DNA from: Escherichia coli | Lineage (GTDB): Bacteria > Pseudomonadota > Gammaproteobacteria > Enterobacterales > Enterobacteriaceae | Assembly: GCF_022846255.1 (NCBI RefSeq) | Contig: NZ_AP025682.1 | Length of the DNA stretch: 64,000 bases | Strand: one strand, 5' to 3' | Shown: positions 7,911 through 47,021 of the stretch, piece after piece | How the letters are laid out: every line of letters begins with the position of its first letter | Position numbering within the stretch: the first letter of the stretch is position 1 | Made by a program: the position numbers and the translations under genes | Notes under the pieces: generated by a model | The model's database searches: none | Told to the model about the DNA's origin: nothing | Seen by the model: the letters and a program-made list of their open reading frames with translations, nothing else

Positions 7911-8507
7911 TTACTGCAACTGTGCGGCAATTAGCGGCCAGCGGGCGTCAAAATCATCCGTCGGGCGGTATTTAAACTCGCTGCGGACAAAGCGTGACAG
8001 CATACCTTCACAGAAGGCCAGCAACTGGCTTGCCAGCAGGGTTTCATCGGTGGTGTAACCTTCACCCTCACGCATTCTCTTTTCACGCAATACCTGACGC
8101 AACTGCGCTTCAATACGCTCGAACAGCTGGTTGATGCGCCCTTGCAGACGATCCTGTTCGAACATTAGCGCATGACCAGTGAGGATGCGAGTCAGGCCAG
8201 GATTACGCTCACCAAAACCGAGAAGCAGCAACACAATCAGACGCAGGCGCGCTGTGGTGTCCTTCTCATCTTTCAGAATCAGATTGATGCGAGTAATCAG
8301 GCTATCTTCGATAAACTCAATCAGGCTATCGAACATGCGGGTCTTACTGGGGAAGTGGCGATACAGTGCCGCTTCGGAAACGCCGACAGAGGCGGCCAGT
8401 TTTGCCGTCGTGATACGTTGGCTTCCATCGCTGGATTCCAGCATCAGCGCCAGAGACTGAAGTATTTCCTCGCGACGGTTCCTTTTCGCAGTTTGTTTTT
8501 CTGCCAT
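7911..8507 (-). CDS. slmA: Nucleoid occlusion factor SlmA (TetR family)
   Basis: ORF contains [52 protein letters not shown]...; 198 aa. Confidence 0.9.
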
Positions 8508-38359: not shown

Positions 38360-39550
38360 CTATGCCGCATTCCCTTTCGCCATCGGAGCTAGTGCCGCAG
38401 GCAATTCTTTATCCAGCCCTTGCACCAGCGAATCTTGCGTAATTTCGCTAATCGATTTCGCGCCAGTCAGCGTCATCGCCACTTTCATCTCTTTTTCGAT
38501 CAGATTTAGCAGGTTAGCTACACCCGCCTGGCCCGCTGTTGCCAGCGCATACAGGAAAGCACGACCCAGCAGTACGGTGTCGGCACCGAGCGCAATCATA
38601 CGCACGACATCAAGCCCGTTACGTATTCCGCTATCCGCCAGAATGGCGATATCACCTTTCACCGCATCTGCAATAGCGGGCAACGCACGAGCGGAAGAGA
38701 GTACACCGTCCAGCTGGCGGCCACCGTGGTTAGAAACCACAATCCCATCAGCACCAAAACGTACTGCATCGCGCGCATCTTCCGGATCGAGGATCCCTTT
38801 GATCACCATCGGGCCATCCCAGAAATCGCGGATCCACTCAAGGTCTTTCCATGAGATGGACGGATCGAAGTTATTCCCCAGCCAGCCGATGTAATCTTCC
38901 AGTCCGGTCGGTTTGCCGAGATAAGCTGAGATATTACCTAAATCATGCGGACGACCGTTCAGGCCCACATCCCACGCCCATTGCGGATGCGTCACCGCCT
39001 GCAAATAGCGGCGCATTGCCGCGTTCGGGCCGCTCATCCCAGAATGCGCATCACGATAACGCGCTCCCGGTGTTGGCATATCCACGGTGAAAACCAGTGT
39101 CGAACAACCCGCTGCTTTTGCTCGCTCCAGTGCGTTACGCATAAAGCCGCGATCGCGCAGCACATAAAGCTGGAACCACATCGGACGTTTGATAGCCGGA
39201 GCCACTTCTTCAATCGGGCAAACGGAAACCGTCGAGAGAGTAAACGGAATGCCATGCGCATCCGCTGCTTTGGCAGCCTGAACTTCGCCGCGTCGCGCAT
39301 ACATGCCACACAAACCTACCGGACCTAGCGCCACCGGCATCGACAATTTCTCATTAAACAGCGTCGTTTCCAGGCTTAAGTCAGACATGTTTTTCAGAAT
39401 ACGCTGGCGCAGCGCCACTTCTGACAAATCTTCCACGTTGCGGCGCAGCGTGTATTCAGAATATGCACCCCCATCCATATAGTGGAACAGGAACGGCGGC
39501 AGAATGCGTTGCGCTGCGGCGCGATAATCGCTGGCTGCGGAAATAATCAT
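38360..39550 (-). CDS. lldD: L-lactate dehydrogenase (FMN-dependent)
   Basis: 396-aa [56 protein letters not shown]... Confidence 0.95.
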
Positions 39551-40323
39551 GCGTTTTTCTCCCTCGAATGCTCATTATGGTCACCAGGCAGGCGGGTAAT
39601 GCGTGCATGGCGAGCCTGATCTTCATCGAATCGTTTCATGGTGGTGTGAACAAAGCTAAGGTGCGCCATCATTGCTTTACGCGCCCCGTCAGCATCACCG
39701 GCAAAAATGGCGTCAATGACTGCCTGATGTTGTTCGGTCAGCTGTGAAAAAACCGGGGGTACCAGATACATCCGCTGGCGGCTATGCTTCACGGAGGATT
39801 GCAGGACATCGAAGAAACCGCGCATGGTTTGCAGCAGCACGATGTTATGTGAGGCTTCGGCAATCGCCAGATGAAAACGAACGTCCGCTTGTGAGGCGAG
39901 ATCCGGGTCTTCACTTAGCGTTGCTTCAAAGCAAAGCTGAATCTTTTCTTTTTCGCCAGGTGTGGCGCGCATTGCCGCATGCCACGCGGTGCTGGCTTCA
40001 ATGGCGTAGCGGGCTTCCAGAATATCGAAACTGTAATCCGGATCATCGGCCATCAGCGTTTTCAGCGGCTGGACGATGTTTTGCTCCGACCATGTGTCAT
40101 GACGCCAGCGAATAAACGTCCCGCCGCCACGTCGACTGAGCAGCACACCTTCGCTTACCAGTTTCGCCAGCGCCTCGCGCAGTGAATTTCTCGACACGCC
40201 GAGTTGCATCGCCAGTTGACGTTCAGCGGGCAACTTCATGCCCGCTTCCAGGTTTTTTTCATCAATCAGCGCCCGCACACGATCGGCAACCTCGTCTGAC
40301 AGGCGTCTGGGTAAAACAATCAT
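39547..40323 (-). CDS. lldR: GntR-family regulator LldR
   Basis: ORF contains [52 protein letters not shown]...; 258 aa; overlaps the lldD start and lldP stop. Confidence 0.9.
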
Positions 40324-41978
40324 TAAGGAATCATCCACGTTAAGACATAGGCCTGAAGCGTGGTGATCACGCCCACCATACAGGTGAAGATCAGGCTGTG
40401 TTTGACAGTAAAGCGGAACAAATCAGACTCTTTGCCCACCAGGCCTACCGCCGCACAGGCGATAGCGATAGATTGCGGAGAGATCATTTTGCCGGTGACA
40501 CCACCGGTGGTGTTGGCAGCAACCAGCAACAGGTCAGAAACGCCAATTTGTTGTGCGGCGGTAGCCTGCAAAGCGGCAAACAAAGCATTAGATGACGTAT
40601 CCGACCCGGTCAGGAATACCCCAAGCCAGCCGAGGAACGGCGAGAAGAAGGTGAATGCATGACCGGTGTGCGCCAGTGCCAGCGCCAGTGTTGATGACAA
40701 ACCGGAATAGTTCGAGATAAAGGCGAACGCCAGCACCATACCGATGGAGTAGATAGGCAGAGCCAGTTCTTTCAGCGTGCTGCCGAAGGTGCTGATAGCG
40801 TCAGATGGTTTCATCTTCAGCCAGACAATCGAGAGCAGGGCAGCAAAAAGAATGGCGGTACCGGTGGCAGAGAACCAGTCAAACTTAAACACGGCGGCAT
40901 ACGCTGTCGCTTCGCTGACCACTGGCGGCATACGGGCAACCAGTTTATCGAGGTACGGCACCGGAATGTTGATCACCCACTCATACAGCGCACCGCCTGA
41001 AGCGAACAGGGCTTTAAACGGCGGGATACTCCACAGCGTTACGGTGGCGGTCAGGAACAGAAACGGTGTCCAGGCGCGCAGCACCTGACCTGCCGTGTAA
41101 CCTGTGTGAGCCAGCGTCATATCAACCTGTGACGCCCCCAAGTCACCGAAGCGGAATACGCGCACTGGTTGCCAGCGTTTGAGGAACAGCGTCAGGCAGA
41201 GCAGTGATACCAGCGAAGAGATAATGTCTGGCAGTTCCGGCCCAATGAAGTTAGAGCTGAGGTATTGAGCAATGGCAAACGAACCACCTGCAACCACGAC
41301 CGCAGGCCACGTCTCTTTGATACCGCGCCAACCGTCCATAATCGCCATGATCCAGAACAGCACGATAATGGTCATAAACGGCAGCTGACGCCCCACCATC
41401 TGACCAATCTCAAAGCTGTCGATGCCTGTTACCTGCCCGGCGACCAGAATCGGAATACCCATCGCGCCAAATGCCACTGGTGCGGTGTTAACAATCAGGC
41501 ACAGTCCGGCGGCGTAGAGTGGTTTAAAGCCCAGACCGACCAGCAATGCGGCGGTAATTGCTACCGGTGCGCCAAAGCCTGCGGCTCCTTCAAGGAAAGC
41601 GCCGAAACAGAAACCGACGATCAGCATTTGCAGGCGCTGGTCAGGGGTTATCGAAAGAATAGACGAGCGAATGATGTCAAACTGCCCGGTTTTCACCGAG
41701 ATCTTATAGACGAACACCGCTGCAATAATGATCCACGCGATGGGCCACAACCCGTAGAAGAAGCCATAAACCACCGAGGCCAGCGCGTTAGCGACCGGCA
41801 TTTTATAGAACAGCAAAGCCACGGCAAGGGCGATTGCCACCGTCCATGAGGCGGCGACGTATCCTTTCAGTTTGAGCTTAATCAGCGCAAAGAAGAAAAA
41901 CAGGATGGGAAGCGATGCTATCAGGCTGGAAAGCCAGATATTCCCGGCGGGATCGTAGTTTTGTTGCCAGAGATTCAT
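40323..41978 (-). CDS. lldP: L-lactate permease
   Basis: ORF contains [44 protein letters not shown]...; 551 aa, polytopic. Confidence 0.95.
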
Positions 41979-42052
41979 TGCAGGTCTCCTGCAGTCCACA
42001 CACGCCGTGTAATGAGTCTGTTGCTCATCTCCTTGTCACACGTTGTGTAAAA

Positions 42053-42068
42053 GTGGCACTGCCAATTG
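42053..42068. promoter_or_regulatory. Putative LldR operator (palindromic TGGCACTGCCA core) upstream of lldP
   Basis: Palindrome about 80 bp upstream of the lldP start; LldR is known to use two operators flanking the lldP promoter; assignment from position and symmetry. Confidence 0.35.
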
Positions 42069-42175
42069 TGTTGTGTAGGGATAATGACAATGGATAGTTA
42101 ACTAAATGTTATGCATTAGCAACATTGATGTGAGTTTTAATTGGGGAATTGTGAACCAGAGGTCAGATAAGCGAA

Positions 42176-42194
42176 GAATTGGTAGGGCCAATTC
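42176..42194. promoter_or_regulatory. Putative LldR operator GAATTGGTAGGGCCAATTC (perfect 7-bp arms)
   Basis: Palindrome about 200 bp upstream of the lldP start and about 120 bp from the other site; matches my recollection of the LldR O1 palindrome AATTGGCCCTACCAATT (reverse strand). Confidence 0.5.
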
Positions 42195-42273
42195 TGGGAG
42201 AGGGGTAATGAAGAAAAGGGCAATTCCCATCAGAGAATTGCCCTCAGATTGTTGATCTGGTGCGCCTTATCTT

Positions 42274-42357
42274 GCCGGATGCGGCGTGAACGCCTTATCC
42301 GGCCTACAGGGTAGTGCTGAATCACCCCGTAGGCCTGATAAGCGTAGCGCATCAGGC
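42274..42357. repeat. BIME: two inverted REP elements between the adhesin gene 3' end and the lldP promoter
   Basis: GCCGGATGCGGCGTGAACGCCTTATCCGGCCTAC followed by inverted REP GTAGGCCTGATAAGCGTAGCGCATCAGGC. Confidence 0.75.
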
Positions 42358-42389
42358 AATGTGGCGTTTACCCATTTGTTAATGGATCA

Positions 42390-45300
42390 TTACCACTGAA
42401 TACCAGCACCGAGTGCGGCGGAGTATTCACCCTGGCTATTGGTACTACCTTGTAATTTGTAGACCCAACGACCATTGGCGCTCACCATCGACACACCTAA
42501 AGCAACAGCCGATTCACCGTTGTAAGTACCGCCACCAATAGACGCCATGCTGGCACCCGGCGTGTAAGCCTGCGGCAGACCGGTCATTGCCATTGCAGAA
42601 GCGATACCACCACTCAGCTTGCTTTCAGTTTTGGACAGTTTGTTATCCATCTCAACCATGCGCTGATCGGTGTATTGCTTCGTTTCCTGCACACTTTGCT
42701 TCAACTGCGCATAGTTCACTGCGTCGTTGTTGTTCACGCCAGCAGAAACGTTGCTGATGCGAGTCGTACCGCTATTGCCGCCACCGAGAGTGATGTTGCT
42801 GTAGTCGATAGAGCCATCAGCTTTGGTGTCGTAGCGCACGCCGCCTGCTTCAGAAGACTTCAGTTGCGAAACGTTAACCGCATCGGTGGCATTAACACCG
42901 GCAGCAACGTTGGTGATACGGCGCTGGTTGGTAGAAGAACCCACAGAGATCGTATTTTCTTCGTCTGCTACGGAACCCGTGCCCAGTGCGACGCTGTTGT
43001 CAGCGGCAGCAATGGAACCAGAACCAATCGCAACACTGTCTTTACCCTGCGCGTTGGCGTCTGCGCCATCGGTGTTGGTCTTGAAGTACTTAGTGCTACC
43101 GGTGGTTACGATATCGCCAATGCCGTTTTCGATATTGGTCACGCGAGTATCCAGATTAGTGACCTGAGTGTTCAGGTTAGTAATGCTCTGGGTATTCTGG
43201 GAAACCTGCGCGTCCGTTACTTTCAACTGACCCACGTTAACCGCATCGGTATCCGCCGAACCTGCTGCGACGTTGGTGATCTGACGTTGACCGTCTTCAC
43301 TGCCGACAGAGAACTCACCCACAGAGTTCTGCGGTGCGTCCATGTTGTAGGCAGTGTAGTTGGTCTGCGCGCCACGGGTAGTCTGAGAACCATTACCCAT
43401 TGCAATGCTGTCGGCATGATTTGCGCGTGCGTTAGAACCGATAGCAATACCGTTGATCGCATCAGCCAGAACTAAAGTGTTCAGGCCGATACCAATACCC
43501 GCATTACCATTAACGATGGTTTTCGCGCCCATTGCCAGCGAGTCTTCACCGACTGCCAGTGAGTCTTCAGCCGTTGAGTTGGCGTGATAGTATTTGGTTG
43601 GTGTGGTTGCGACTGCACCAATGGCGTTCTGCAACTGGCGAACAGTAACAGCGTCATGGGCTTCAGAACCATCCGCGACGTTGATGATTTGACGATATTT
43701 ACCATCATCACCGATCGACAATGCACCAAGCAGTTCGCCGTCAGTTGTGTCATAACCAATAACCACTCCATCTTCTGTTACGCTGGTAGAGCGTGAACCT
43801 TTCAAAATGACCCGGTTAGAGACCGAATTGCTGCCTAATGCGATGCCGGAATCGATAGTGCTACTGCTGTTCTGACCAATCGCGACACTGCTTTCCCCGG
43901 AAGCGACAGAGTTATAACCCACAGCCGTTGAGCCAACGCCCGCGGCGCTTGCGTCGACAAAGGTTAAGCCCGTGTCGTTGGTGCGAACATAGTTAATACC
44001 CGCCCCATTTTCTTCGATATAGGTACTGTTAGTATTACCGGCGAGTTGGTTGATGATCTCACTATTCTGATTGATCAACATATTCGCGGCATACAACTGA
44101 GAACCGTTAACGGCATCGGTACTGGCGGCAGAAAGTTCACCTGCGGCAACATTCGTGATTTTGCTGGTGGTGTTAGTGCCGTGCGCCGCAGAGAATGAGC
44201 CGGATACGGAATCCCACGTCATCGCATCTTCACCGAGACTGTCGATAGCATCAGTCAGATTGGTGATGTTGGTAGTGTTAGTGGCAACGTCAGTGGTCAG
44301 ATTACTGATATTGGTGGTGTTGGCTGCCACATTCTCGTTGGTAGTATTCAACTGAGAGCCATTAATCGCATCAGTACTGGTGGCACTGATCTCACCCGCA
44401 GCAACATAAGCGATTTTGCTGGCACTACCACCGTGACTGGCACTGAAACTGCCTGAAGCGTTGTCCCAGAGCAGGGCATCGCCGAGTGAGGTTCCGACCG
44501 AAGTGTTAATGGCTGCCAGGGCATCGCCTACGCTGTTGTAGTCAGTTCCATTAATACTATAGGTTGGGCCAGTAAATACACCTGTATCACTTACAGTGGC
44601 ACCGCCACCAAAATAATCCGCTACCGTACTGCTAAGACCGTAGAGTTGTCCACCGTTCACGGCATCGGTACTGGTGGCAGAAATAGCACCTGCGGTGACA
44701 TTGGTGATTTTGCTGGTGGCGTCAGTGCCGTGCGCAGCGCTGAATGCTGTGCCCTTCCACAACAGAGAATCGTCACCGAGACTGTCAACAGCGTCAGTCA
44801 GGTTAGTGATACTGGTGGTATTGCCAGCGACGTCGTTGGTCAGATTAGTGATATTGGTAGTGTTGGCAGCAACATCGTCTTTGGTGGCTTTCAACTGCGA
44901 ACCGTTAACGGCGTCAGTGCTGCCAGCTGTCAGGTCACCGGCTTTGACATTGGTGATTTTGCTGGTGGCGTCAGTGCCGTGCGCAGCGCTGAATGCTGTG
45001 CCCTTCCACAACAGAGAATCGTCACCGAGACTGTCAACAGCGTCAGTCAGGTTAGTGATACTGGTGGTATTGCCAGCGACGTCGTTGGTCAGATTAGTGA
45101 TATTGGTAGTGTTGGCAGCAACATCGTCTTTGGTGGCTTTCAACTGCGAACCGTTAACGGCGTCAGTGCTGCCAGCTGTCAGGTCACCGGCTTTGACATT
45201 GGTGATTTTGCTGGTGGCGTCAGTGCCGTGCGCAGCGCTGAATGCTGTGCCCTTCCACAACAGAGAATCGTCACCGAGACTGTCAACAGCGTCAGTCAGG

Positions 45301-47021
45301 TTAGTGATACTGGTGGTATTGCCAGCGACGTCGTTGGTCAGATTAGTGATATTGGTAGTGTTGGCAGCAACGTCGTCTTTGGTGGCTTTCAACTGCGAAC
45401 CGTTAACAGCGTCAGTGCTGCCAGCAGTCAGGCTGCCAGCACTGACGTTGGTGATTTTGCTGGTGGCTTCGGTGCCGTGTGCGGCACTGAATGCTGTGCC
45501 GTTCCACAACAGAGCATCCTGCTGCAGGTCGTACAATTGAGAGCCGTTTACTACATCGGTGCTGGTTGCAGAAACCGTACCTTTAGCAACATTAGTGATT
45601 TTGTTGGTGGCATTTGCACCGTGATTGGCGCTGAACGCCCCCGCGGTTTTATTCCATTGTAGGGTATTATTGTCGATTCCTGACAGAGCATCACCCACGT
45701 TATTATAGGTTCCGCTTCTCAACGCGTAGCTTACTGCGGTTACGGTGCCATCGCTGCCTACAGTAGCGCCTCCTCCGAGTCGCTTGGCGACTGAATCACT
45801 GATCGTATAAAGCTGTGAGCCGTTGATGGCATCGGTACTGGTGTTGCTTATGGCACCAGCAGCCATATTAACAATTTTGCGTTTTGTTGCGCTGTTGCCA
45901 ACTGAAACCGTATTGCTTGCATCTGTGGTCGATCCTGCGCCGATAGCGACAGAATTGTCGGTCGCTGCTGCAGCCCCTACACCGAGGGCGACAGAATCAT
46001 TGCCGTTTGCCCTGGACTGGCTACCGAAAGCAAGGCTGTTGCTGCCACCAGCGGCACTACCCTCTCCCAATGCGATGGCATTCTCTCCCGAGGACAAACT
46101 GTTACTTCCCAACGCGATTGAGTTCACTTTGCTTGCAATGCTACCTTGCCCCAGCGCAATCGCATTTTGTTCGCTGGCTTCACTGGTGTTACCTAATGCA
46201 ATACTGGATTCGCCAGATGCCTGACTTGCATTACCCAGGGCCATCGAATTCACTCCCAGGGCTTGCGTTTTGTTCCCAATCGCGATGGCGTTATCGTTCG
46301 AACTGATACTGTCAGCACCTATTGCCAGTGAGCCAGTGCTATTAGCTGTAGATTGTCTGCCGAATGCGAGGCTATCAGCACCGGCAGCATTGCTACTTGC
46401 TCCCAGCGCCATTGCATAATCTTTTGACGCATTGGCATTATCACCGAGGGCGATGCTCATAATTTCGTAAGCTTTAGCCGAATTTCCTAACGCAATAGTT
46501 TTTTCACCATCGGCAAGGGAGGAGTCCCCAATAGCAAGAGATGTATAACCATTCGTCTTTGCGTAACGACCAAAAGCCATCGAACGATCGCCATTTGCTA
46601 CTGACGATGCACCCAGCGCGACACTTCTGTCACCCATTGATTTTGCACTAACCCCGAACGCCATGGATGCTCCACCAGTTGCAAGGGTTTTTGACCCGAT
46701 GGCAGAACTGTACTCACCTTCGGCTATCGCGTCATATCCTAAAGCTGTACTCGCGCCACTAGTGTTCATAAAGGTATTTGCTTTTGCCCCTTTACCGATA
46801 GCAACCCAGCCGTCACCTGCTGAGCCATCGCCATAATCAGTTGGCTGCCCGTCGTAGTTATTAGCTAACGCTCCAAACGACGACAACAACCCACCCGCAA
46901 CCAACGCAGAAATTAACAGCTTACTGCGCCCGCTTTTTTTACCACGGCTCTTCGCCGTTTCGCTGGCAACGCTGTAACTGCCCGTCGCCGGGTTCCAGAT
47001 AACTTTAAATATTTTATTCAT
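42390..47021 (-). CDS. upaG: Trimeric autotransporter adhesin, UpaG/EhaG/SadA family (1543 aa)
   Basis: N-terminal extended signal peptide [21 protein letters not shown]...; long low-complexity stalk with tandem repeats; C-terminal YadA-like anchor ending ...[13 protein letters not shown]; located between yibL and lldP, where UpaG/EhaG sit. Confidence 0.85.
44640..45620. repeat. Tandem 249-bp (83-codon) direct repeats inside the adhesin gene, about 3 near-identical copies plus diverged flanking copies
   Basis: Segment ttggtgattttgctggtggcgtcagtgccgtgcgcagcgctgaatgctgtgccc... recurs near 44701, 44950 and 45199; the protein shows the unit [25 protein letters not shown]...[11 protein letters not shown] three times. 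Confidence 0.85.

Follow-up and report, generated by a model that had tools for sequence, protein, structure and literature searches.

Two 17-bp palindromic boxes upstream of lldP, in the 64,000-nucleotide stretch of Escherichia coli DNA analyzed here (the window), are almost certainly the LldR operators O1 (42177-42193) and O2 (42051-42067) of the sigma-70 lldPRD promoter, working by the published mechanism in which two operators form a loop and LldR plays a dual role. The O1/O2 pair of the E. coli lldPRD promoter is already known, and the finding is correct but ordinary. Sequence identity, position, uniqueness and the conservation of both sequence and spacing were established in this analysis. 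LldR binding and the dual role of the regulator are taken from the literature on the identical K-12 sequence, and we infer the start site, the promoter hexamers and the loop.

Results

The gene lldP lies on the minus strand, so that upstream corresponds to higher coordinates, and both boxes are found upstream of its start codon. On the lldP strand the upstream site, O1, reads AATTGGCCCTACCAATT and the downstream site, O2, which is located within the transcribed leader, reads AATTGGCAGTGCCACTT (AAGTGGCACTGCCAATT on the plus strand of the window). O1 is a perfect palindrome with 7-bp arms (GAATTGG/CCAATTC); in O2 the symmetry is perfect over an 11-bp core (TGGCA-C-TGCCA) but imperfect in the outer arms. 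Both boxes fit AANTGGN5CCANTT, and a search of both strands of the 64 kb with the pattern AANTGGNNNNNCCANTT returned two matches, O1 and O2 only, when 0.12 were expected by chance and two or more were seen in one of 100 shuffled sequences. The boxes are 126 bp apart from start to start, leaving 109 bp between them, and a repeat finder paired them independently in both orientations, direct (D1, spacing 126) and inverted (I2). The first-pass annotation had described two palindromic LldR-type sites flanking the lldP promoter. Its first site, GAATTGGTAGGGCCAATTC, is present at 42176-42194 exactly as given. Its second, placed at about 42053-42068, does contain TGGCACTGCCA, at 42054-42064, but the full box extends over 42051-42067, and the spacing of about 120 bp proposed for the pair was slightly low. 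The description of the sites as flanking the promoter is correct, O2 lying, by the putative start site, in the transcribed leader and not upstream of the promoter.

The boxes were compared with published LldR sites. For the lldP promoter, the LldR genomic-SELEX study of Anzai et al. 2023 (PMC10272880) gives AAtTGGcCctACCAaTT and AAgTGGcactgCCAaTT in its Table 1 and notes their agreement with what Aguilera et al. described in 2008. The window has the same 17-mers at O1 and O2, letter for letter, which supports their identity as LldR operators; the published sites thus occupy the same places as the boxes and do not map elsewhere in the lldP upstream region. AATTGGCCCTACCAATT is also cited as an LldR binding sequence in PMC3582500. 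Measured against the LldR box consensus AAnTGGTCnGACCAnTT of PMC10272880, which has 14 specified positions, O1 matches at 12/14 and O2 at 10/14, as in the table of that paper. Searching the window with this consensus at up to three mismatches detected O1 and one chance-level site (62583) and missed O2. Therefore O2 is a weak consensus match that is recognized by its context. As the strict 14-position consensus does not discriminate, the boxes were instead judged by the looser core pattern, for which chance matches had been estimated.

Alignment to K-12 MG1655 and to CFT073 shows O1 and O2 to be identical in all three, with no insertion or deletion between the boxes. In K-12 they occupy positions 3777184-3777200 (O1) and 3777310-3777326 (O2) of NC_000913.3, and in both K-12 and the window they lie at -215 and -89 from the lldP ATG. 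The window thus shares with the K-12 system (Aguilera et al. 2008) the operator sequences, the 126-bp spacing, the distances from the ATG, the gene order lldP-lldR-lldD and a 99% identical LldR. LldR of the window is identical to that of K-12 at 255/258 residues; residues 1-123, including the N-terminal DNA-binding part, are unchanged, and the three differences all lie beyond residue 123. While the operators carry no differences, the rest of the 237-bp control region departs from K-12 at a few positions, such as 42118, where T replaces C, and the gene upstream of the control region is upaG in the window and yibL in K-12, with the terminator hairpin kept in both. The control region is single-copy in 5420/5426 complete E. 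coli genomes; its best E. coli match is 99.6% identical, and most genomes are about 96% identical. Among E. coli, the window is nearest to uropathogenic strains, with UPEC 26-1 at 99.3% and CFT073 at 99.1%.

The boxes sit directly upstream of the operon that encodes their cognate regulator. All three of its genes are on the minus strand: lldP (40323-41978), encoding the L-lactate permease of 551 aa (NCBIfam NF007740 equivalog, 1199 bits, full length, with a CFT073 RefSeq orthologue); lldR (39547-40323), encoding the 258-aa GntR/FadR-type regulator LldR (NF007741 equivalog, 498 bits); and lldD (38360-39550), encoding the FMN-dependent L-lactate dehydrogenase (NF033901, 823 bits). Each protein scores above the curated cut-off of its own NCBIfam model and agrees with the RefSeq annotation of CFT073. 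A mechanical list of open reading frames gives lldP as 558 aa, beginning with a GTG at 41999 (40323-41999, minus strand). The true start is the ATG at 41978-41976 on the minus strand and not this GTG, because the resulting 551 aa fit the full-length family model and the annotation. A Shine-Dalgarno GGAG (41986-41989, minus strand) stands 7 nt before the ATG, in a block that is invariant in 56 species. On the other side of the control region lies upaG (42390-47021, minus strand), encoding a trimeric autotransporter. Its intrinsic terminator hairpin (42216-42245, minus strand; inverted repeat I8) was called by a terminator scan as a 13-pair stem followed by TTCTTCATTA; its low end is 22 bp from O1, and the hairpin delimits the lldPRD control region on the upstream side. 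REP/BIME elements are seen at about 42260-42360; they give sub-threshold naRNA4 matches and recur in E. coli genomes, with a median of 38 matching places in each.

Is O1 bound by LldR, or by one of its relatives? The boxes, or O1 at the least, could primarily be operators of PdhR, or of another FadR-subfamily paralogue such as GlcC, placing lldP under pyruvate rather than lactate control. The nearest family relatives of LldR by profile are PdhR and GlcC, and the solved structures closest to LldR are those of PdhR. From the region preceding lldP, genomic SELEX with PdhR recovered AATTGGccctACCAATT, which agrees with the PdhR box at 13/14 positions (PMC7660256). O1 equals this box, and it shares 13/14 positions with the ATTGGT-N3-ACCAAT type of site that PdhR, a FadR-subfamily paralogue of LldR, recognizes. 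Moreover, lldPRD mRNA rises 3.3-fold in a pdhR mutant (PMC7660256). However, the strongest LldR genomic-SELEX peak is by far that of the lldP upstream region (62.9, against at most 13.8 elsewhere in the genome), and deletion of lldR abolishes lactate induction of the lldP promoter (PMC10272880). Furthermore, the PdhR list for lldP holds the O1 box without O2 (PMC7660256). The PdhR system differs in this respect, as well as in its effector, pyruvate instead of lactate, and it has no two-site loop model at lldPRD. Occupancy of O1 by PdhR thus adds to control by LldR and does not replace it, and we regard a primarily PdhR-type operator as extremely improbable.

To follow the boxes across species, enterobacterial loci were retrieved solely through a pattern for the N-terminal coding part of LldP, the operators forming no part of the query. 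Both boxes are present in all 57 loci with enough upstream DNA, the window counted, at -211 to -218 (O1) and -86 to -92 (O2) from the ATG. The two boxes start 126 bp apart in 49 loci and 125 bp apart in the remaining 8, or 12.0 and 11.9 turns of a helix with a 10.5-bp repeat, and the O2 core TGGC..CCA is kept in 57/57. Mean column identity to the window, calculated over 56 sequences, is 0.96 in O1 and 0.84 in O2, compared with 0.67 between the boxes and 0.71 in the rest of the leader. Upstream of O1 it falls to 0.26, so that the conserved control region is bounded on this side by O1. A spacing of 126 bp, about 12 helical turns, agrees with the earlier suggestion that the arrangement is compatible with a two-operator model, and a constant O1-O2 phasing, as read from these sequences, would be expected if LldR held the two sites together in a loop. 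Two records carry labels from outside the Enterobacteriaceae. CALXDF010000207.1, labelled as an uncultured Oscillospiraceae MAG, has lldP promoter boxes, positions and spacing exactly as in E. coli, and CACSKA010000004.1, labelled Chryseobacterium sp. 18061, has boxes of the enterobacterial type where they usually lie; contamination or mis-binning is the likely origin of both.

The core promoter was located relative to the operators. In the work of Aguilera and co-workers from 2008, O1 reportedly spans -105 to -89, and the reported span of O2 is +22 to +38. Because these two spans both put +1 on the same base, lldPRD transcription would start at about 42088 on the minus strand (K-12 position 3777289) and produce a leader of about 110 nt; the agreement is an internal consistency check and no proof. 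A putative -10 element, AACTAT (42094-42099, minus strand), ends 6 nt before this start, and a putative -35 element, TTGCTA (42117-42122, minus strand), is separated from it by a 17-bp spacer. Both were read from the sequence and placed by position and conservation alone. The candidate -10 is AACCAT in K-12, and AAC-AT is conserved across species (56 sequences); the candidate -35 is TTGCCA in K-12 and CFT073, with GTTGC conserved in the same set. The strain-specific substitution at 42118 moves this -35 one step further from TTGACA. A simple sigma-70 consensus scan called no promoter, a result that would be in keeping with a promoter dependent on an activator.

Additional conserved features are present around the promoter. 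The ArcA-box-like sequence GTTAACTAAATGTTA (42097-42111, plus strand) overlaps the core promoter and the putative -10. It matches GTTAATTAAATGTTA, an ArcA-box consensus, at 14/15 positions, is the sole match in the window at up to two mismatches and is 88% conserved among the 56 sequences. In the literature, an ArcA operator is placed between O1 and O2 (PMC8689689) and ArcA represses lldPRD directly (PMC3798270). Between O1 and the putative -35, at about -66 to -62 and -45 to -41, two strongly conserved TCACA blocks (42150-42154 and 42129-42133, minus strand) are 21 bp apart. A CRP site sought by eye around these blocks gave weak half-sites only; glucose repression of the lldPRD promoter has been reported. 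In the lldP leader, a direct repeat, CACACGCCGTGTAA / CACACGTTGTGTAA, lies at 41999-42012 and 42037-42050, each copy being partly palindromic. Part of the copy adjoining O2 does not vary among species (on the lldP strand, TTTTACACA), and the other copy is poorly conserved.

The region of O1 also bears a weak resemblance to a described small RNA. The Rfam family STnc380 (RF02055) aligns to 42152-42253 on the plus strand; the first hairpin of its model, with the consensus aaaauuGGuAGGgCCaauu, corresponds to O1 and the second to the upaG terminator hairpin. The orthologous place in Salmonella arizonae (8225-8326 of the retrieved locus L021) gives the same weak match. Accordingly, the O1 palindrome and the adjacent hairpin might be the stem-loops of a plus-strand small RNA, antisense to the upaG-lldP intergenic region, instead of a DNA site. 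Yet the window scores 26.2 bits and Salmonella arizonae 21.4 bits, far under the gathering threshold of 60 bits, and six related loci yielded no match at gathering level. A simple promoter scan found no promoter-like site for such an RNA, and its plus-strand hairpin is not followed by a run of T. Invariant TGG/CCA cores together with a fixed phasing of 125-126 bp to a second box are, in turn, what a DNA operator predicts and not what an RNA stem does. We consider the chance that O1 is such an RNA stem to be practically nil, and LldR operators remain the preferred reading of both boxes. With all scores far below gathering, membership of 42152-42253 in the STnc380 family was rejected. Within the collection of papers searched, none was on STnc380, the one match being to STnc3800. 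Since the consensus of its first hairpin equals the O1 palindrome and its second hairpin the upaG terminator, what the STnc380 family model captures may in part be a DNA operator and not a structured RNA.

Discussion

The lldPRD control region described here carries two LldR boxes that are identical to those of K-12 and that are maintained, in sequence and in distance, throughout the enterobacterial loci sampled. Each 17-bp imperfect palindrome is of the type that a dimer of the GntR/FadR-family protein LldR would be expected to bind. LldR, the product of the second gene of the operon, would bind both O1, about 97 bp before the putative start, and O2, about 30 bp after it. In the published model, the dimers bound at the two sites contact each other when lactate is absent, so that the 109 bp with the promoter form a loop and transcription is repressed. 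Upon exposure to L- or D-lactate the repression loop would be lost, and LldR at O1 would then activate transcription. Under anoxia, phosphorylated ArcA would repress from its site between the operators, and PdhR may also occupy the O1 box.

Published work on the K-12 promoter is in accordance with this scheme. The two LldR sites bracket the transcription start; repression requires both of them, and lactate-dependent activation requires the upstream one (PMC3424551, PMC5412874). Likewise, in a synthetic promoter both LldR sites were required and O2 had to come after the start site (PMC7969014), and cutting the distance from O2 to the promoter by 10 bp in a synthetic promoter abolished induction, a result discussed in terms of distance and looping (PMC8689689). 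As to the effector, millimolar lactate strengthened LldR-DNA complexes, and dissociation was seen only with excess lactate (PMC10272880). This differs in detail from the model in which O2 is released (PMC5412874), and the effector step is not fully settled.

The lldPRD promoter can be compared with two other kinds of system. Loop repression with two or more operators is known from lac (O1/O2/O3), gal (OE/OI) and ara (O2/I1). As in these loops, sites for one regulator bracket the lldPRD promoter and lie a whole number of helical turns apart (126 bp, about 12), and distance-dependent repression has been reported (PMC8689689). The lldPRD system differs from lac, gal and ara in that its regulator belongs to the GntR/FadR family and in that LldR at the upstream site turns activator with the effector (PMC5412874, PMC3424551). 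LldR proteins outside the enterobacteria offer a second comparison, which concerns the number of sites. In Corynebacterium glutamicum and Pseudomonas, LldR acts at a single operator with a FadR-type TNGTNNNACNA motif; the site overlaps the promoter, and the protein is described as a simple repressor that lactate releases. These regulators are of the same family and share the same core type, TGG-N5-CCA, with that of lldPRD, whereas the enterobacterial lldPRD promoter has two distant sites and a regulator with a dual role.

Might one sequence work at two levels, as an operator in DNA and as a stem-loop in RNA? Transcription of O1 and the terminator hairpin on the plus strand might also yield a small RNA of the STnc380 type, in addition to the function of O1 as an operator; the sub-threshold Rfam match is all that positively supports such a transcript. 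We judge it very unlikely that the region holds this novelty or the milder one, that the phasing newly supports the loop model. The phasing itself was read from 57 loci that had been collected independently of the operators, and its strict 125/126 bp across Enterobacteriaceae may provide new quantitative support for a loop.

O1 and O2 are textbook-level elements of lactate regulation in E. coli, already in use in lactate biosensors, and the present analysis leaves that knowledge unchanged. Its outcome is a confirmed annotation of the window, comprising the operators, the putative promoter, the ArcA box and the minus-strand operon, together with a cross-species footprint. In that footprint, the two boxes and the 12-turn spacing between them are kept in every enterobacterial lldP promoter sampled, a conservation that fits the published looping model.
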